Below, piece after piece: positions 10,355 to 39,283 of a DNA stretch of 64,000 nt (its first letter is position 1; every line of letters starts with the position of its first letter). The stretch lies in NCBI GenBank assembly GCA_963819815.1, contig CAWFXL010000001.1:607027-671026 (forward strand), in the 5' to 3' direction. The stretch comes from an uncultured bacterium. GTDB lineage: Bacteria > Babelota > Babeliae > Babelales > Babelaceae. A program made the position numbers and the translations under genes. The notes beneath the pieces were generated by a model that was not told the origin of the DNA, searched no databases, and saw nothing but the letters and a program-made list of their open reading frames with translations.

Positions 10355-10823
10355 GGAATTACCCTTTCTTAAAAAGTGTTTTTTGTTAGTTTTCTTATAC
10401 ATCAATTTTGGTATTCTGCCTTCCATAGTTCGATACCTGGTAATCATCCTTTCATCGTTAAGAGTGTTAACAAACAAACATCAATACCTCGGTGAGGTAG
10501 GATTCCTCACGCTGGATTGTTATACTTTCACTATACCGCATTCTCGATTACAGAAACAAGATTTTCTTAATTTTACATTAATTCAAAATAGAAATATTAT
10601 ATTTTTGTGAGAAGTCGCGCATTATTGATGCCCTCCTAGAGGCATGTATACTTACAAACTAGCAACCGTGCAATCGCATGCTAGCTTTGGAATAAAGCTA
10701 AACTTTTTTCTCCAAAAGTTTCACCCTGTCAATAAAGGGGGCCTGTTTTCCTGTTTCTCGACTTGGAAAATTCCCTATTTAGAGGTATACTAGGGACAAA
10801 TTCAGCAAATCGGGAGTATTTCC

Positions 10824-13241
<2,418 letters not shown>

Positions 13242-31042: not shown

Positions 31043-31425
31043 GTTACAACTCCCCACACCTCAAAATCCATTGAGGGGGTAATAATAATAGGTTCATAGG
31101 CAGGATTCTCTGCACAAAGCAGTATCCTTGACCCTTCTTTACGAAGACGCTTAACGGTAAGTTCACCATCAATACGTGCAATAACAATCTTATTATTGGT
31201 AGGCGTAAGTGCCCGATCAACAATAAGAATATCATCTGACGTAATACCAGCATTCATCATAGAATCACCCGATACGCGCACAAAAAAAGTTGCTGCAGGA
31301 TGTTGAATAAGCAACTCATTTAAGTTCAGTGCTCGATCAACATAATCTTCAGCAATAGAAGGAAACCCTGCAGGAACAAGAGATTCAAAAAGAGGAAATG
31401 AGAGCTCTTTGCGTAGTTTACCCAT
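31021..31425 (-). CDS. umuD: UmuD / LexA-like S24 peptidase
   Basis: 134 aa. The Ser nucleophile is in VSGDSMMNAGI and the Lys in GELTVKRL. It lies directly upstream of umuC. Confidence 0.85.
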   Translation of the reverse strand: MGKLRKELSFPLFESLVPAGFPSIAEDYVDRALNLNELLIQHPAATFFVRVSGDSMMNAGITSDDILIVDRALTPTNNKIVIARIDGELTVKRLRKEGSRILLCAENPAYEPIIITPSMDFEVWGVVTCVIHRV

Positions 31426-31913: not shown

Positions 31914-32396
31914 ATGAAAAAACTATACGGCATAGTATTGATGAGTCTTGCAGTTGCAAGCTTACAGGCAAAAAAAGAGATCGACCTTGATGCTATATTG
32001 CAAGCAATTCAAAACTCTAACCTACCGGATGCTCAACGTCAGCTGGAACCACTGAATCTTAGCACTAAGAATTCTGCTGACAGGCAAGAGCTCCTTGAAG
32101 AACTGAAAGACAAAGCTACTTCAGTTGATCAAAGACAGAATATCACTAAATTAGCCTTAGGTAGCCTCATTTTGCTGGGATCAAGTTTAGGAACCACCTT
32201 CGCCCAAAGAAGCGACTGGTACAATAGAAATACATCTGTATATCCTAGAGATCTTGTCTATTATTGCTTATTCGGTGCTCGAGTACTTGCAGCACTCTTT
32301 ATAAAAGATGGGATTTCAGGACTGTTCTTTAAGGATGGCTCTTCAAAATCTGCACGTGTTCGTGAGTATTTTGAAGACCTTGCTAATATAGAGTAA
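31914..32396 (+). CDS. Hypothetical secreted/membrane protein
   Basis: 160 aa. It has the signal peptide MKKLYGIVLMSLAVASLQA and an internal TM (LALGSLILLGSSLG). AGGAG lies upstream. Confidence 0.5.
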   Translation: MKKLYGIVLMSLAVASLQAKKEIDLDAILQAIQNSNLPDAQRQLEPLNLSTKNSADRQELLEELKDKATSVDQRQNITKLALGSLILLGSSLGTTFAQRSDWYNRNTSVYPRDLVYYCLFGARVLAALFIKDGISGLFFKDGSSKSARVREYFEDLANIE

Positions 32397-32501
32397 TTGC
32401 CCTGGTTGCGCGATCTTGAAGGCTGGAGAACTCGTGAATAGAGCTCCTCAACGCAAGACAAAAACTAACCTTTAGAGACTAATCTAAATCTCAGGTAACA
32501 A

Positions 32502-32543
32502 AACGGCGGTAGATATAGTACTTCTATCGCCGTTCTTTTTTTG
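32502..32543 (+). terminator. Rho-independent terminator
   Basis: aacggcggtaga / tctatcgccgtt form a 12-bp stem with 1 mismatch, followed by CTTTTTTT. Confidence 0.6.
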
Positions 32544-32573
32544 CTCTCAAGAGTATCTAATCCCTTGATAGTT

Positions 32574-32640
32574 ATTTTTTTTGTACGAGCTGATCATCTA
32601 TAGAGTTGATAAACTTCCAAGTCTAGGCGACATGGTAATC
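32574..32640 (-). pseudogene. Decayed 3'-end fragment of a third copy of the Cys-protease paralog family
   Basis: ttttttttgtacgagctgatcatctatagagttgataaacttcc aligns at roughly 70% identity, by eye, to the 3' end of 35680..37020 (tttctttgtaccagaagatcatctatataggtaaccaatttc, encoding ...YIDDLLVQRN*). The frame is broken by stops. Confidence 0.3.
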
Positions 32641-32785: not shown

Positions 32786-34243
32786 CTACTTAGGCGGCAT
32801 TTTAGATTTTTGCTCAGAAGAAGTCCAATTAAAATTTTTTGTTATACCCCGAACCACTGCACCTAAAAGCAGGTAAAGAAACGGGGGTAAATCATGTAAG
32901 TCCACTATTGCTTCTTCGACCTCAGGTTCAAGGAGATCATCTATATAGCTAACCAACTTCGTAACACCGTTGCCTGCTCTGAGAGGAGCGTTCAGTGAAT
33001 CGAAAAGATACATGGTTGAGACACCTTCTTTACGCACAACTGCAAGAAGTACCCAGTGGCAGCCAGCAACATTATAAATAAAATACGTAACGGGAAGTGT
33101 TTGTAATTTTTCTTTGAGATGCTTTATTGCATCGACTTTTTTGCCAGTTTTTAATGCTGTGTGAAGAAAACCGATTGTTTCAGGACTAACGAGCTCAATG
33201 GAGTTCGGGTCAATATTCAGCTGTACCGCTGATGGAATAAGATCAACATCGGCACTATATTCTACTGCACCTCCACGCTGCAGTTTCTTAAAGGCCGGAA
33301 GATTAGTGATAGCTTCAGAAAATACTTTCTCAGCCAGTTCACGTGTCCGCGCAAACGTAATTGGTTGCCCTTGCGATACTTGAGCATTCACCGCAACTAA
33401 ATTCGCCAGTGCCGAAAATCCACAGGTATCTTCTATTTGGTTAGAGGACACTACGTACACAAAGGGATTCTTAAGAGAAAGCCCAGACAGAGGAGTACCA
33501 TCATCTAGAGTAGCATAAACAGGACCATGCACATTATTAACGGCTAGTAAGGGATCATATTGTCGACTTGCTATAGAGCGCCATAATAGGTCGCCCGTAT
33601 AGAACCAGGGCGATCGGGAAGCCCTTTTTAGTTTTTCTTGCAAGAGCTTTTCTAGCTTCTCCTTTTCAAGAGAAAGTTCTAGATACAGGCTATCATTGCC
33701 GGCAGCCACAGCTTGATCTATTTTTTCATCTCGCTCTAAGAGCTTTCCCTGGGCTTTTGTAAAGTCTGCCCGGACGGGAGATCTTTTGTCAAAATAGTCT
33801 TGTATATTCAAGGGCTTGGTAGTTGCTTGAGTTGTAGGTTTTACTGCAGGTCTTGAAAGAGGCGATCTGAAAACTGCTGGAGCCATATTCGCATTTTGCA
33901 GCGATTGGACCGCAGAAACATGCATAGTCTCTGCAACTCGACTCGGTACTGCAGGTGATTTTGTTGCATGCGTTTGATCGATAATTTGTTGAGTTTCAGC
34001 CTCTTCAATAAGCTCGTATGCCTTTCTTCGTGCTATAGGAAGCTCTTCTACATTTTTATCCGCTATGGCAATAAGTTGTTCTTCAAGCTCGGCTAAATGA
34101 TATTGATCAATCCCACGTCCTTGGGCTGTTTTTAGAGCATCTTCAAGGAAGATGACATCCGACTGCATGCCTCTACACGAGAAGACTAAGAAACCCGCAA
34201 ACCAAAAGAACAAGCGGATAAAGACTGTGGGGGTTGTTTTCAT
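32786..34243 (-). CDS. Secreted papain-fold Cys protease, Josephin/UCH-like (putative deubiquitinase-type effector), paralog 1
   Basis: 485 aa with a signal peptide and a helical N-terminal half. The C-terminal domain has NQIEDTCGFSALANL (Gln at -5, Cys, L+5, N+7, L+8 as in the Josephin QEGSLCAQHCLNNL). About 120 aa later comes AGCHWVLLAVVRKEGVSTMYLFDSLN (compare Josephin HWFTVRKLGKQWFNLNSL). Confidence 0.5.
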   Translation of the reverse strand: MKTTPTVFIRLFFWFAGFLVFSCRGMQSDVIFLEDALKTAQGRGIDQYHLAELEEQLIAIADKNVEELPIARRKAYELIEEAETQQIIDQTHATKSPAVPSRVAETMHVSAVQSLQNANMAPAVFRSPLSRPAVKPTTQATTKPLNIQDYFDKRSPVRADFTKAQGKLLERDEKIDQAVAAGNDSLYLELSLEKEKLEKLLQEKLKRASRSPWFYTGDLLWRSIASRQYDPLLAVNNVHGPVYATLDDGTPLSGLSLKNPFVYVVSSNQIEDTCGFSALANLVAVNAQVSQGQPITFARTRELAEKVFSEAITNLPAFKKLQRGGAVEYSADVDLIPSAVQLNIDPNSIELVSPETIGFLHTALKTGKKVDAIKHLKEKLQTLPVTYFIYNVAGCHWVLLAVVRKEGVSTMYLFDSLNAPLRAGNGVTKLVSYIDDLLEPEVEEAIVDLHDLPPFLYLLLGAVVRGITKNFNWTSSEQKSKMPPK

Positions 34244-34386
34244 AGCGAATGCCTTTCAATTTGTCAATTAATAGACTTATTATGTATTAATATTATCACT
34301 AACTGAAAATAAATGCAAGGGTCTGGCGTCTTTCGCCGACCTCAAAGCAGAATCCCTCATCAAAGGGATCAAAGGGGAGATTTTTG

Positions 34387-34451
34387 AACCAAATGTAGGA
34401 TGCGTTTGACGTTTGGACTGACCAAATATCAAACGCATCCTACATTTGGTT
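34387..34451. repeat. 23-bp perfect inverted repeat (long hairpin)
   Basis: aaccaaatgtaggatgcgtttga (34387..34409) is the exact reverse complement of tcaaacgcatcctacatttggtt (34429..34451). The 19-nt loop itself contains tttgg/ccaaa. Confidence 0.85.
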
Positions 34452-34579
34452 ATTTGTGGGAATAGCTAAATTCTAGGCGCTTATGCCTTCTTTAAAAGTC
34501 GTATATTTCCTGCAGGGAGCCTAGAAAAGTCTCTTGCTTAGATGAAGGATCATACAGATGTCTGCTTCTGAAAGCCCTT

Positions 34580-35272
34580 TTAAAGGCCCGTTTCAGTAAG
34601 ATCTACCGCAGTGATGAAAGAAAGCGGTACCTCTAAAGCTTCTTTCTGTGAGGTAAAGCTCATACGATGAAAGAGCGTCAGTCCATCTTGATCGATACCT
34701 TGACGATGTGCCTTGGTACCATAGCCCTTATTATTGGCATAGGCATACCCCGGGGTAACGGCATCTAAGCGGGTCATAAGCGCATCTCGAGTTACTTTCG
34801 CTATAATAGAGGCTGCGGCAATAGATTTCGATTGGCGCTCTCCGTAAATAAAATGGACCACAGGAATATCAAGATGATCAAGCTTAATAGGCATTGCATC
34901 GACAAGAATGACTGAAGGCTTCGGATCATGAGCTGTTAGTAACTGCATCAGGGCACGCTTCATGGCAATAAGTGTTGCTTGATAGATATTGCGCGAGTCG
35001 ATCAAACGATGATGTACTATACCTATGCCGTAAGTTGAATTCTTCATAAGCCACTGAAAGGCTATTACTCGCTCTTCATGAGTCATCAGCTTAGAATCTT
35101 TTATGAGCTTATTGCGCGCTTTAGGTCGCAATATGGCTGCAGCAGCAACCACAGGACCTGCAAAGCAGCTTCTCCCCACCTCATCAATACCGCACACAAG
35201 CTCTGATCGCTCCCATGCCTCATTCTCATAGAGGTTGCGCTTAAAATCGGGCTTACGCTTCGTGGTGACCAT
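34580..35272 (-). CDS. rnhB: Ribonuclease HII
   Basis: The motif GIDEVGRSCFAGPVVAAA (DEDD-type RNase HII N-terminus) is present, with DSK and KGYGT downstream. The ATG at 35272 was preferred over the TTG at 35287. Confidence 0.9.
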   Translation of the reverse strand: MVTTKRKPDFKRNLYENEAWERSELVCGIDEVGRSCFAGPVVAAAAILRPKARNKLIKDSKLMTHEERVIAFQWLMKNSTYGIGIVHHRLIDSRNIYQATLIAMKRALMQLLTAHDPKPSVILVDAMPIKLDHLDIPVVHFIYGERQSKSIAAASIIAKVTRDALMTRLDAVTPGYAYANNKGYGTKAHRQGIDQDGLTLFHRMSFTSQKEALEVPLSFITAVDLTETGL

Positions 35273-35607
35273 GCAAGTTCTCGGCAAAGATTAAAGACTC
35301 CGTAATCCAAGAATAGCTCAGTATCATTAGGAGAGCAACCAGCTGAGCTAAAGGCATACTTAGACAAGGAGGCTTTTTGCAGCCATTTTTAAGTTGGGAC
35401 CAACCACGAGAATGAAAGCGTCTCTTCAAACAAAAGATTGTAGCACAGGGCATCCCCACTAGCTTTTGAAGCCGGTTGTGCGTGTTCATTTTTCAAGCAA
35501 TTAACGAATTAGTAGACTTAGTCGATACTTTGTAGTTTTTGAAGCTGCAGGCACATTCTCATTTGGCAAACCAAGAGGAATGAATGACTATACAAAAAAC
35601 CCAGATA

Positions 35608-35650
35608 ACGAAACGGCGGGACCAAGTAAGTTCACCACCGTCGTTTTTTT
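35608..35650. terminator. Hairpin plus T-run just past the stop of 35680..37020
   Basis: aacga(aa)cggcgg ... ccaccgtcgtt is an imperfect stem followed by TTTTTTT on the plus strand. It lies 30 nt from the minus-strand stop and is probably bidirectional. Confidence 0.4.
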
Positions 35651-35679
35651 ATCTAAAAGTCAGTTATCTCTACAGGTAG

Positions 35680-37020
35680 CTAGTTTCTTTGTACCAGAAG
35701 ATCATCTATATAGGTAACCAATTTCATAACATCATCACCAACTCTGACAGGAGCATTTGATGAATTGAGAAGATACATACTTGGAACGCCATCTTTGCTA
35801 ACAACTGCAAGAAGTACCCAGTGACAACCTCCTACGTTATAAATGATATATGTAAAGGGAAGTGTATGTAATTTTTCTTTGAGATGCTCTATAGCATCGA
35901 TTTTTCGGCCGGTTTTTAATGCATTATGAAGAAAGCTAATCGTTTCATGGCTAACAAGCTCAATGGTATTTGGATCAATCTTGAGCCGTGCAGCTGAAGG
36001 AATAAGATCAACATCGGCACTGTAGTTCACTGCACCTCCACGCTCTAGATTCTTGAAGGCTGGCAGTGCTGTGATAGTTTCAGAGAATGCTTTTTCAGCC
36101 AGTTCACGCGTCTGTGAAAAGGTTATCGGTTTTCCCTGAGCCACCTGAGCATTCACCGCAAACAAATTTGCAAGCGCCGAAAACCCACAGGTGTTTTCTA
36201 CTTGGTTAAAAGACACAAGGTACACGAAAGGATTCTTCAGAGGAAGAGTAGACAAAGGAGTACCATCATCTAATGCAGCATATACAGGACCATGCACGCT
36301 ACTAATGGCTAGCAAGTGATCAAAGTGTCGAACCGTCATATAACGCCATAATAGATCCCTCGTATAAAACCAGGGAGACTGAGAAGCTTTTCTCAGTCGT
36401 TCTATGAAGGGCGTTTCTATTCCTTCCTTTTCATGAGAAAGTCTTAGATAGAGGCTATCGTTTTGGGCAGCAACAGCTCGCTCTATTTTTTCATCGAGTA
36501 CTCTAAGCTGGCCTTGGGCTTTTGCAAAGTCTGCCTGGAGAGGAGATCTTTTGTCGAAATAGTCTTGTAGATTCAAGGGCTTGATAGCTGCTTGAGTGCT
36601 AGACTTTATTGCAGGTCTTGAAACTGACGTAGATGAATTCGCGTTTCGCTGCGATTGGGATGTAGTAACATCTTCATCGTCGTCGTTTGAAAAAATGCGC
36701 ATAGGTCGTGCACCTTGACTTGGCACTACAGCAGTTTTTGGTTCATTCGTTTGATCGATAATTTGTTGAGTTGCTGCCTCTTCAATAAGCTCGTATGCCT
36801 TTGAGCGTGGAATCGGAAGCTCTTCCTTAGCTGTATCGGCTATGGCAAGAAGTTTGTCTGTAAGCTGTATTCTATGATCTGCATCAATCCCCAGTTTTTG
36901 TGCTCTTGCCAGCGCATCTTCAAGGAAAATTATGTCCGATTGCATAGCTCTGCACGAGAAAGCTGAGAAACTCATAAATAAGAGTGCCCATATGGTAGGG
37001 CTTGTGAAGGTTATTTTCAT
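35680..37020 (-). CDS. Secreted papain-fold Cys protease, Josephin/UCH-like, paralog 2
   Basis: The start was re-set to MKITFTSPTIWALLFMSFSAFSCRAMQSDIIFLEDAL, matching paralog 1's MKTT...FSCRGMQSDVIFLEDAL. The motifs NQVENTCGFSALANL and GGCHWVLLAVVSKDGVPSMYLLNSSN are conserved, with the third residue D->N. Confidence 0.5.
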   Translation of the reverse strand: MKITFTSPTIWALLFMSFSAFSCRAMQSDIIFLEDALARAQKLGIDADHRIQLTDKLLAIADTAKEELPIPRSKAYELIEEAATQQIIDQTNEPKTAVVPSQGARPMRIFSNDDDEDVTTSQSQRNANSSTSVSRPAIKSSTQAAIKPLNLQDYFDKRSPLQADFAKAQGQLRVLDEKIERAVAAQNDSLYLRLSHEKEGIETPFIERLRKASQSPWFYTRDLLWRYMTVRHFDHLLAISSVHGPVYAALDDGTPLSTLPLKNPFVYLVSFNQVENTCGFSALANLFAVNAQVAQGKPITFSQTRELAEKAFSETITALPAFKNLERGGAVNYSADVDLIPSAARLKIDPNTIELVSHETISFLHNALKTGRKIDAIEHLKEKLHTLPFTYIIYNVGGCHWVLLAVVSKDGVPSMYLLNSSNAPVRVGDDVMKLVTYIDDLLVQRN

Positions 37021-37201
37021 AGCAGTGTGTCCTTTTTTCAATGTGTCATAAATCAAAACATTTAATAGTAATTATAACACTTATTGAAAACATGCGCAAG
37101 AACCTGCTGCTTTTCCAGCCTCTATTGCAGCCCAGTCAAGCAACGAGCATACAGGCGCCCCTTCAATTGTATATTGTAGGACTCCACCATCCCAATAGCG
37201 C

Positions 37202-39283
37202 TCATGCAGCTTGTGCATGTTCTTTTTCATGTAGTTGACGCACTAAATGGGCAGCCTTATCAAGAATCACCCCAGGAAACCCCTGCTGCTTGAGTACCTC
37301 AAGCGCAATACACTGATGAGAAACACCAGCTTCAAGCTTAAATGGATACACGTATTCACCCTGATCAGTAGCCTTAACCGATACTCGGTAATTTTTGAAG
37401 GTATCGGTAGCTTCTTCCAATTTGGTAAGCAAAGAGAAGTGGGTTGATATAATACAGATATTATTTTTAAAGGGGGCCAAATGATGTGCAAAACTATACG
37501 CTGCAGCAGAACCTTCTACTGGAGCAGTCCCATTAAATATTTCATCAAAACAGGCAAAACTAAACTCACCCGATCCTTGCTGTTCTACTCGCTCAATTAA
37601 GCGCTGCGCCTGGCATGCTTCTGCCATAAAGAGAGAGTTGCCTGCACTAATATCATCCACAACATGTAAGGATGTTTTAATCGTATGGAACGGCGTAAAA
37701 TGCATTGCAGAAGCGGGGACAATCCCAATGGTTTGCCCTAAGATGATACAAAGTGCTAGTGATCTTAGGATGGTCGACTTACCACCCGCATTGGGACCAG
37801 TTATAATCATATTTTGTCGCTCAGTGCCTCCCAATAAGACATTATTTGAGATAGCGAGTTTTGAATCAATTAGTGGATGCCACATTTCATGTATATCTAA
37901 AAGAGGAGTCTGTTCCGCGGCATAGGTAGCAAAGCAAAACTTGACCTGCTGCGTCTCATGTTCTTTCATAAGCTTTGCCAAAGACACATACATATCGATT
38001 TTACCAATATCAGTTGCGAGTTCTTTAAGCTCATCTTTTACCTGATGCACAAGCTTATGCGCTCGTACCGCATGTCCCCTATTACTTGTCAATGAAAACT
38101 GTTTTTTAAACGTATCTCGCCCCAAAAGATCGATGAGCTCTTTTAACCTCGGTGATGCGGGAACTTTGACCTCAAAGAAATCAACTATTCCTTTACATTC
38201 CTCATAGAGCTCAGGACAGCTTTTCATCTCTTCAGAAAGCTTCCGTGCATTCATCATAAACTGAGCATAATGCGAGGTCATTGCATGCATATATTCTTCA
38301 AGATGATAGCAATCTGAAAGCCATTGAATGCTTTGCTTAGAATGATACCATGAGAGCAATCCTGTACCAAGGGCAATCCCAATATTCATCCATCTGTTAT
38401 TCCTATCCCAGAGCATCCCTGACAAGGACCATGCCCCTCCCCCCAATGAGTCTCTAGCTAAAGTTGCCACTCTCTCTGAAGGTTGCTTGTTAGCTATCCT
38501 TTGAATCGCATACCATGATAATACACACATACTTCCACAGCATAATGCTATCCACTTCAATCGCTGTGCATGCCCAGCAGTACTTCCGCAATTTAAAGCG
38601 ACCGTGCTTTTATTAAGAAAAGCAAACATGCCCCCATACTGTTCCTCCGAAAATTCAAGCAAATCCTCGACATATCTTTTCATGTAGTCAGTCTGGTAAA
38701 AAGCAAGAAATACAGGCTCAGCAGTGCGCATGGCACCTAGTGCCTCACTAAAAAGCTTCATTTTCTCTTCATCAGCCACAAAGCCCCGTATGATATCTTG
38801 CCTCTTTTTCAAGCGACTAACATCGGTTAGCGGTGAAGCAAGATGTAAAAAAAGAGATACTTTCCCAAGCTCGGTCTGAGTGCGACACAGAGCTTGCGCC
38901 ATATACACATCAGGCTTGGATTGTCCAGAAAAAAGAGTTAGATCAGTCCACGTAGTAGCCGGATCTAACAATACGTTACTCTGAAGCTGAAGCCTTTCCT
39001 CTGCTCCTTTAAAGAGATCAAATGCGGCAGATCTATACCACTTCTTGAGCGGACTACACTTACGCTTCCATTCACCATCTATAAATTCACGACTCGAGGA
39101 ATAGTTAGCTGGCTCTTCCTGCTCCCAGCTAAACGATGCAAGATTATGCTCTGCAACCGCGGTAACGGTTGCGCCTCCGGCCGGACGAGGGCAGGGCTCT
39201 TCAGCAAGCACACGTGGAAAAAGGAGCACACTAAGAATAATCGATAGCCGAAAAATAGTATTCATGGGTAGCCTCTGGAACAA
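37202..39283 (-). CDS. MutS-domain-V ATPase with an N-terminal signal/TM region (MutS-related, not canonical MutS1/2)
   Basis: 693 aa. Walker A is ITGPNAGGKSTILRSL, Walker B FACFDEIFNGT, and a STHF motif is present. The N-terminus has a signal-like helix and a hydrophobic segment (WIALCCGSMCVLSWYAI). No mismatch-binding or Smr domain is evident. Confidence 0.7.
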   Translation of the reverse strand: MFQRLPMNTIFRLSIILSVLLFPRVLAEEPCPRPAGGATVTAVAEHNLASFSWEQEEPANYSSSREFIDGEWKRKCSPLKKWYRSAAFDLFKGAEERLQLQSNVLLDPATTWTDLTLFSGQSKPDVYMAQALCRTQTELGKVSLFLHLASPLTDVSRLKKRQDIIRGFVADEEKMKLFSEALGAMRTAEPVFLAFYQTDYMKRYVEDLLEFSEEQYGGMFAFLNKSTVALNCGSTAGHAQRLKWIALCCGSMCVLSWYAIQRIANKQPSERVATLARDSLGGGAWSLSGMLWDRNNRWMNIGIALGTGLLSWYHSKQSIQWLSDCYHLEEYMHAMTSHYAQFMMNARKLSEEMKSCPELYEECKGIVDFFEVKVPASPRLKELIDLLGRDTFKKQFSLTSNRGHAVRAHKLVHQVKDELKELATDIGKIDMYVSLAKLMKEHETQQVKFCFATYAAEQTPLLDIHEMWHPLIDSKLAISNNVLLGGTERQNMIITGPNAGGKSTILRSLALCIILGQTIGIVPASAMHFTPFHTIKTSLHVVDDISAGNSLFMAEACQAQRLIERVEQQGSGEFSFACFDEIFNGTAPVEGSAAAYSFAHHLAPFKNNICIISTHFSLLTKLEEATDTFKNYRVSVKATDQGEYVYPFKLEAGVSHQCIALEVLKQQGFPGVILDKAAHLVRQLHEKEHAQAA

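Follow-up and report, generated by a model that had tools for sequence, protein, structure and literature searches.

Which family of cysteine proteases is represented by the two putatively secreted paralogs that bracket rnhB in an uncultured bacterium of the family Babelaceae, and on what might such proteins act? The locus lies in a 64,000-nt stretch of DNA (assembly GCA_963819815.1, contig CAWFXL010000001.1, positions 607,027 to 671,026), which is called the window here. Its minus strand carries, in this order, copy 2 (35680-37020, 446 aa from the ATG; P0004), the RNase HII gene rnhB (34580-35287; PF01351, E 9e-30), a housekeeping gene that serves only as context, and copy 1 (32786-34243, an open reading frame (ORF) of 485 aa; P0001). 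A preliminary description of the locus had taken the two flanking proteins for Josephin- or UCH-like deubiquitinases (DUBs) directed at the ubiquitin system of a host. That paralogs with Gln/Cys, His-Trp and Asp/Asn motifs bracket rnhB on the minus strand, at these coordinates, was verified. The features that speak for a secreted protease directed at host ubiquitin also stand, namely a papain-type active site, an aromatic residue after the catalytic His, and ubiquitin-interacting motifs (UIMs) in relatives; the Josephin or UCH identity does not. Membership of the Josephin family is not supported, and the original family assignment is probably wrong. Instead, going by the sequence comparisons, the best reading of the catalytic domain is that of a CE-clan fold, of the Ulp1/SENP/CidB type, in circularly permuted form. 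Dependentiae (TM6) bacteria live inside protists, and on balance we favor the view that the two proteins are Sec-exported Dependentiae effectors, permuted CE-fold proteases that act on host ubiquitin or a ubiquitin-like modifier.

The catalytic domain, as delimited by an AlphaFold model, profile searches and dN/dS, spans residues 210-440 of copy 1 (32924-33616, minus strand) and residues 214-446 of copy 2 (35683-36381, minus strand). Its conserved motif positions in copy 1 are Gln269 (codon 33437-33439), Cys274, five residues further on (33422-33424), Asn281, the pair His396-Trp397 (33053-33058) and Asp415 (32999-33001), all on the minus strand; those of copy 2 are Gln273, Cys278, His400-Trp401 and Asn419. 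Both copies share a Cys block of the form NQ(I/V)E(D/N)TCGFSALANL and a His block of the form GCHWVLLAVV...MYL(F/L)(D/N)S, and the distance from Cys to His is 122 residues, close to the 120 or so first estimated. The similarity of the paralogs had been placed in the C-terminal half, where it is indeed highest (the catalytic domains are 73-74% identical), but it is not confined there: by BLASTP the proteins are 66% identical over 445 columns, from their first residues to the end of copy 2. Between the copies, dN/dS amounts to 0.30 for the whole length, 0.17 for the catalytic domain and 0.57 for residues 26-209, so that both copies appear to be functional genes maintained by purifying selection. 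Copy 2 was considered as a possible pseudogene and this was rejected, its ORF being intact, all of its catalytic residues kept and the dN/dS of its catalytic domain low; the Asn that it has at the third triad position is used by 13 of the 34 family members aligned. The public protein collection also holds a protein identical to copy 1, encoded on a 1.6-Mb contig.

The family to which these domains belong appears from the searches to be small and uncatalogued. An exhaustive profile search of 1.84 billion representative proteins returned 44 representatives at E<=1e-3, including 25 at E<=1e-10. A word-indexed search of 5.8 billion proteins found only copy 1 itself, its paralog and one protein of 37% identity, and with a profile it gave seven matches, none of them named. 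None of the family proteins for which a source name was returned carries a name, none of the seven with precomputed annotation has a Pfam domain, and NCBIfam held nothing relevant to the family. Conservation was counted in an alignment of 34 catalytic domains, with copy 1 numbering. Cys274, Asn281 and His396 are invariant (34/34), and Gln269, Gly275 and Asn418 are each present in 33 of the 34. The residue after the His is always aromatic (W in 28, Y in 4, F in 2), and position 415 is Asp in 20 members and Asn in 13. Local duplication of the gene family recurs, as can be deduced from an unrelated metagenome contig (L004), where the distant members P0046 (6076-7365) and P0167 (7564-8427) stand in tandem and have near-identical signal peptides.

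Given the 34-sequence domain alignment and residues 203-445 of copy 1, AlphaFold returned a catalytic-domain model with a pLDDT of 96.4 and a pTM of 0.93; given only three sequences, it returned one of low confidence (pLDDT 48.7). In the model, a long helix (residues 72-88 of the domain) begins with the Cys, ahead of which come a strand (59-63) and the Gln. Strand 195-203 starts at the residue after the His, and the next strand, 206-213, ends with the Asp. As modeled, this arrangement would be that of a classical papain-type enzyme. Foldseek was used to compare the model with the PDB, and the best 50 of 430 weak matches were considered. The four highest probabilities all belong to the CE clan (7FIU, 0.38; 6UPU, 0.35; AvrA, 6BE0, 0.30; 6UPS, 0.25), and a fifth CE-clan entry, OtDUB 8EFX, has a probability of 0.15. 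These CE-clan matches are weak (E of at least 0.18, TM-score 0.22-0.30), and a sequential alignment matches a permuted fold only in part. There was no Josephin, UCH, OTU or USP structure in the best 50 of the 430. An OTU-like reading was rejected, since the third triad residue is on the strand that follows, 19 residues past the His, an arrangement shared by papain, CE and Josephin enzymes, and since no OTU match was seen in the Pfam scan or among these 50 fold matches. The full-length protein, compared with the PDB by phmmer, had no match at E<=10.

The best structural neighbors of the model anywhere were found among predicted viral structures (BFVD). The first is a Hyperionvirus segment (A0A3G5ADB8_2; E 1.1e-3, probability 1.0, TM-score 0.43, 222 aligned columns) and the second an Edafosvirus segment (A0A3G4ZWX5; E 0.03, 209 columns), both belonging to large proteins of Klosneuvirus-type giant viruses. 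This comparison of models hints that the same domain may circulate between giant viruses and intracellular bacteria of protists.

The affinity to the CE clan emerged most clearly when the family profile was searched against the PDB. Its only significant match was the Ulp1-type DUB domain of CidB from Wolbachia (7FIU, E 8e-6), and this match came in two pieces in swapped order: family positions 167-207, with the His and Asp, align with chain residues 107-150, and family positions 54-84, with the Gln and Cys, align with chain residues 173-205. Both motif blocks thus match a solved CE-clan protease. Each member was then permuted in silico: a cut separated the helical middle from the His half, and the parts were re-joined in the CE order. 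With the profile of the permuted sequences the two 7FIU pieces became collinear (E 3e-6), and when the distant subgroup was added they merged into one alignment of positions 45-165 to 99-205 (E 3.7e-5), after which the next matches were OtDUB (E 0.09) and the Cys motif of SENP8 (E ~1).

Pfam matches are distributed in the same direction. Among the 34 members, Peptidase_C48 (PF02902) was matched by 12, ElaD/SseL by 5-6, RickCE by one and LupA by 1-2, so that CE-clan families were matched three to four times as often as Josephin. Permuted sequences matched C48 in single stretches running from the His through the Cys, at positions 82-189 (25.2 bits) and 82-215 (20.9 bits), both above the C48 gathering score of 20.7, and two further permuted members did so at positions 85-178 and 85-176. 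Nine distant members were compared with C48 in native and in permuted order: permutation raised the score of seven, and the other two had no match either way; one family member reached 21.0 bits on C48 in its native order.

The likeness to the CE clan, taken here as C48, the CidB DUB 7FIU, OtDUB of Orientia (6UPS/6UPU), ElaD/SseL, RickCE and ChlaDUB, extends to both halves of the active site. The strand pair with His-aromatic ... Asp-Ser and the block strand-Gln-x-x-x-x-Cys-Gly-helix both match, CE structures have the highest probabilities among the weak fold matches, and the family has, as do Ulp1 and SENP1, an N at Cys+7 and, following the Cys helix, a P-(I/L)-x-F motif. Once re-joined, the elements of the model run strand, two helices, strand, His strand, Asp strand and helix, followed by strand, Gln, Cys helix and a helix with the P-I-x-F motif, an order that would reproduce the published topology of Ulp1 (1EUV). 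In CE enzymes the block strand-Gln-Cys-helix comes after the His/Asp strands, whereas in this family it stands ahead of them, and this placement gives the Cys-before-His order that looks superficially Josephin- or UCH-like. The UCH (C12) likeness is at the level of motifs only, namely Gln...Cys-Gly, His-aromatic and an Asp some 15-19 residues later. Other differences from the CE clan are an extra N-terminal sub-structure (model residues 1-58) and a predicted Sec signal where CE-clan effectors have type III or IV signals. Many CE-clan enzymes of bacteria serve intracellular species as effectors and strip off ubiquitin or a ubiquitin-like modifier.

There is a precedent for this kind of event. 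EmcB/CoxDUB of the Legionellales are permuted OTU effector DUBs in which the Cys helix has moved to the other end of the domain with activity kept (PMC12501173). They resemble our proposal in being effector DUBs altered by circular permutation, and differ from it in that the parent is OTU and not CE, the Cys helix has gone to the C-terminus, which is the opposite direction, and they are substrates of Dot/Icm; the searches made here gave no match to the EmcB/CoxDUB family, in sequence or in fold. CE enzymes themselves are considered to have a permuted papain fold (PMC7391069), and a literature search found no report of a Cys-first CE-like family. It may be, and we put this forward more tentatively than the effector reading itself, that the family is an undescribed class of ubiquitin or ubiquitin-like proteases that arose by permutation of the CE fold, occurs in Dependentiae and other uncultured bacteria and possibly in Klosneuvirus-type viruses, and is delivered by plain Sec export.

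How such a protein might work can be outlined from copy 1. Once a signal peptide of some 25 residues has been cleaved off, the mature protein would consist of a helical N-terminal module, a variable linker and a papain-fold protease domain of 230 residues. Cys274, at the N-terminus of its helix, would be the nucleophile, and His396, just before a beta-strand, the general base; Asp415 on the next strand (Asn in copy 2) would orient the His, and Gln269 would form the oxyanion hole, a role assigned by analogy with papain-fold and CE-clan enzymes. Trp397 would be an aromatic gatekeeper that admits only Gly at P2, which would make the Gly-Gly C-terminus of host ubiquitin, or of a ubiquitin-like modifier, the substrate. 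Ubiquitin, NEDD8 and SUMO are all compatible with this outline, as are conventional and "clippase"-type cleavage. Sec would export the proteins, which might reach the host in outer-membrane vesicles, as has been proposed for Chromulinavorax. Cleavage could then take place on host proteins or on the bacterial compartment, countering ubiquitin-dependent defense as known bacterial DUB effectors do. Catalysis, specificity toward ubiquitin or a ubiquitin-like modifier, cleavage of the signal peptide and passage from periplasm to host are what we infer in this outline.

The choice of substrate draws on two observations. An aromatic gatekeeper after the His is typical of ubiquitin and ubiquitin-like proteases and strongly enriched in them relative to other cysteine proteases (PMC7391069), and an aromatic residue directly after the catalytic His is found in 34 of 34 members. 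In addition, Pfam detects UIMs in four distant members (best 22.4 bits, cutoff 21). Therefore, a host ubiquitin or ubiquitin-like target is a reasonable supposition. UIM-like motifs, N- or C-terminal to the protease domain, were seen in P0018, P0028, P0037, P0039, P0043 and P0045, in four of these six by Pfam and in the remainder by eye in the alignment.

The claim of a Sec signal was borne out by a crude hydropathy scan, which finds a signal-like N-terminus in both copies. In copy 1 it comprises residues 1-25 (34169-34243, minus strand; MKTTPTVFIRLFFWFAGFLVFSCRG, followed by MQSD) and in copy 2 it lies at 36946-37020 on the same strand. Both proteins start with a basic and then a hydrophobic stretch, followed by a conserved Met-Gln (Met26-Gln27 of copy 1 is kept in the three closest homologs), and by the same test 37 of 47 family proteins begin with a hydrophobic segment, most of the others being fragments or having mis-called starts. 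Candidate cleavage sites are predicted between C-R-G and M and between C-R-A and M, a placement that should be regarded as provisional. The public annotation of copy 2 (P0002) starts at Met26 and so leaves the signal out. The start context GCT-ATG-AAA-A common to both copies (repeat family D12) and the hydrophobic segment in the 37%-identical homolog argue for the longer form; an alternative TTG start at 37056 would give 458 aa. A lipoprotein reading of the sequence FSC as a lipobox was rejected, as the Cys is not present in aligned homologs and position -2 is Phe.

Directly after the signal-like segment of copy 1, invariant columns delimit a conserved helical module (residues 26-92; 33968-34168, minus strand) with the signature DVIFLEDA...G(I/V)...LPIxRxxAYELIEEA. 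It recurs in many family members and is predicted to be helical in a low-confidence full-length model, and no match to a known domain was found for it. Sec export is consistent with what has been reported for the phylum: in one well-studied Dependentiae genome, that of Chromulinavorax, 44% of the proteins have signal peptides, Sec has been proposed as the effector route along with outer-membrane vesicles, and the secreted peptidases include a family-C65 enzyme (PMC6561590).

Several findings weigh against a permuted CE-fold effector. The order of the catalytic residues, Gln, Cys, His and Asp/Asn, is not the defining His, Asp, Gln and Cys order that is found in every CE family, and for that reason we file the family as a permuted relative and not as a member of the clan. 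Neither window protein reaches the curated threshold of any known family; on C48, with its cutoff of 20.7, copy 1 scores 18.1-18.4 bits and copy 2 only 12.4. The gain from permuting whole sequences was modest (12 to 17 members matched, best E from 3e-5 to 1.7e-5), and hhalign against a two-sequence Ulp1/SENP1 profile gave a probability of 2%. The Gln-Cys spacing of 5 is that of Josephins, whereas it is 6 in Ulp1 and SENP1, as read from their sequences. The permutation was tested at the level of sequence only, and in the Foldseek comparison with the PDB nothing was significant (E of at least 0.13, TM-score of at most 0.30). A collinear, very weak alignment to ataxin-3 also exists. As to function, no UIM was found in either window protein, and a Sec signal leads only to the periplasm, so that entry into the host is our inference.

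The last two points raise the question of whether these are papain-fold enzymes that do not act on ubiquitin-type modifiers at all, for example a general or processing protease, a YopJ-like acetyltransferase or a periplasmic or envelope hydrolase. The Sec signal taken alone predicts a periplasmic or extracellular location, for which the NlpC/P60-type papain-fold cell-wall hydrolases, with their Sec signals, are a precedent. AvrA, which is a YopJ-family acetyltransferase with the same CE triad, is among the top fold matches, the window proteins pass no curated threshold, and their N-terminal module has no known link to ubiquitin. However, NlpC/P60, CHAP and YopJ are absent from the Pfam matches of the window and family proteins, and a cell-wall hydrolase of the NlpC/P60 type was rejected as lacking both profile and fold support. 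The aromatic residue after the His and the UIMs of the four distant relatives also speak against this alternative, and the named sequence relatives (C48, ElaD/SseL, RickCE, LupA, CidB, OtDUB and Josephin) are all ubiquitin or ubiquitin-like proteases. Dependentiae, moreover, appear to use Sec signals for host-directed effectors (PMC6561590). We consider an enzyme of this kind unlikely, though it deserves to be taken seriously.

Improbable as well is the reading closest to the original one, that the two proteins are genuine Josephin DUBs, possibly ubiquitin C-terminal clippases, of a divergent bacterial branch like SnJOS, PcJOS and BpJOS. Josephins in bacteria had been described as only sporadically reported; the bacterial family has now been characterized with crystal structures (PMC10643670; bioRxiv 10.1101/2024.07.24.604956). 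The linear order of the motifs, Gln-(5)-Cys ... His-Trp ... (D/N)-S-L-x-x-P, agrees in both copies with that of the Josephins (ataxin-3, JOSD1/2, SnJOS1/2, PcJOS, BpJOS and PaJOS). The spacing from Cys to His is similar too, 122 residues here against 105 in ataxin-3, and SnJOS2 has Cys214 and His345. SnJOS1 and SnJOS2 of Simkania are likewise encoded by neighboring paralogs, with a C-terminal catalytic domain after an N-terminal extension of about 200 residues. Their lack of the aromatic gatekeeper that is invariant in the present family sets them apart from it.

In profile searches the resemblance narrows to a short segment. The window proteins have no match to the Josephin profile (PF02099; MEROPS C86) even at E<=10. 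Among the 34 members, 3-4 match this profile, all under the gathering score of 26 bits, and the best score, 25.1 bits, was that of a permuted, trimmed construct. All but one of these matches are restricted to the His/Asn hairpin (profile positions ~67-145, the strongest 89-132), and the exception, P0042 (E 0.033, positions 23-127), does not reach the Cys region either. Three family profiles searched against the PDB found no Josephin chain better than E ~1, the level at which ataxin-3 chains are reached by way of the His motif. The collinear alignment mentioned above was obtained with hhalign against a profile of 23 ataxin-3 orthologs. It spans 110 columns from the Gln/Cys to the His with a pairwise E of 0.0018, but its probability is 15% (7% against the single ataxin-3 sequence), and a mere 12 columns at the His supply 26.5 of the 27.2 score units. 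The bacterial Josephin structures 9F5T, 9FN4, 9FPA and 9G7G were not among the matches, although their presence in the searched PDB copies was not checked. The absence of Josephins from the best 50 of the 430 Foldseek matches, despite a model with a pLDDT of 96, points the same way. For UCH, PF01088 gave no match at E<=10 with the window proteins or at E<=0.1 with 34-36 family members, which together with the fold comparison argues against that assignment. We therefore return to the permuted CE fold as the preferred description of the domain.

Very improbable, finally, is an independent, unclassified papain-fold lineage in which the CE- and Josephin-like motifs arose convergently in Gly-Gly-specific proteases with no permutation, since, even though the motifs resemble those of all three of CE, Josephin and UCH (an N at Cys+7 occurs in ataxin-3, Ulp1, SENP8 and CidB), no PDB structure is a significant neighbor, every profile-profile probability is low (2-15%) and CE enzymes are themselves described as permuted papain folds, the re-joined order of elements would reproduce that of Ulp1 (1EUV), both motif blocks match the same CE protein at E ~1e-5, and CE structures make up a disproportionate share of the best fold matches.

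The locus also bears traces of rearrangement. A decayed third copy had been suspected, and a remnant is indeed present downstream of copy 1 (32486-32640, minus strand; repeat families D3 and D5, three-way DNA alignment), but it amounts to only ~130-155 nt. It is closer to copy 2 than to copy 1 and aligns with copy 2 over its last codons (…IDDQLVQKK*), its stop codon and its 3' flank, so that what survives is the end of a copy-2-like gene. Convergent with this remnant is a plus-strand ORF of 160 aa (31914-32396) with a signal-like N-terminus (MKKLYGIVLMSLAVASLQA) and no Pfam match.

The end of copy 1 is altered too. Its residues 441-485 (32789-32923, minus strand) form a C-terminal extension that is found neither in copy 2 nor in homologs and is of low confidence in the model. 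In the DNA alignment, a 33-nt segment that includes the stop codon of copy 2 is missing from copy 1 (D5), which therefore reads on for 45 codons into sequence homologous to the 3' flank of copy 2. Being a former 3' flank, the tail is thus no domain but of recent, accidental origin.

Between rnhB and copy 1 lies the inverted repeat that had been put at 23 bp. It is real and larger than that: a hairpin (I1; 34387-34451, with no strand assigned) with 30-nt arms, of which 24 nt are perfectly paired, and a 5-nt loop, with an RNA folding energy of -44.9 kcal/mol (z -11.8). There is no U-tract behind it. Candidate roles are those of a terminator, a processing site or a palindrome bound by protein; a repeated mobile element was rejected, as no further copy of the arm sequence occurs elsewhere in the window.

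Comparison with other genomes suggests that the arrangement around rnhB is not fixed. Contig L003 (1-3437) of a "Candidatus Dependentiae bacterium" metagenome-assembled genome (MAG) has 95% DNA identity to window positions 34556-35514 and 36029-38382, a match on which the placement of the window in Dependentiae is based. On that contig, rnhB abuts an internal point of the mutS-like gene, whose 3' part comes next and then copy 2. Either the duplicated locus has therefore been rearranged between close strains or L003 is mis-assembled. In the window, the mutS-like gene (37202-39283, minus strand) encodes a MutS-family protein that matches domains III and V only (PF05192, PF00488) and begins with a hydrophobic, signal-like segment (MFQRLPMNTIFRLSIILSVLLFPRVLAEEP), an uncommon feature in a DNA-repair ATPase. 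In another MAG (L002), rnhB is not adjacent to the single-copy homolog, which is 50% identical, so the linkage to rnhB is not conserved. An ORF of 215 aa (10665-11312) follows that homolog, its start overlapping the homolog's 3' end, and it encodes a hydrophobic run some 20 residues long (positions 21-41).

Two neighbors further along the window may be recorded here. A plus-strand gene at 26974-29676 encodes a 900-aa protein with a eukaryote-type lysophospholipase/cytosolic phospholipase A2 domain (PF01735, E 7e-17) and is a candidate for a host-directed phospholipase effector. Beside the locus, at 29756-31425 on the minus strand, is an overlapping pair of UmuD-like (Peptidase_S24) and UmuC/Pol V-like (IMS, IMS_C, DUF4113) genes, judged from their domains to be a translesion-synthesis module in a reduced genome.

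DUB-type effectors are a main means by which intracellular bacteria disarm host defense, and new classes of them shift what can be predicted from sequence. The present family is invisible to annotation based on Pfam, NCBIfam and the PDB, and yet it is confidently modeled with all of the catalytic hallmarks; its compact domain of 230 residues is suited to standard ubiquitin and ubiquitin-like probes. If the permutation is real and the proteins are active, EmcB and the permuted OTUs would be joined by a second case in which circular permutation, here of the CE fold, has given rise to effector DUBs, and a Cys-before-His order would be unsafe as a basis for assigning a protease to clan CA or to the Josephins. 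If the proteins are active, they would represent the first ubiquitin-directed enzyme family described for the Dependentiae, a mostly uncultured phylum of protist parasites.

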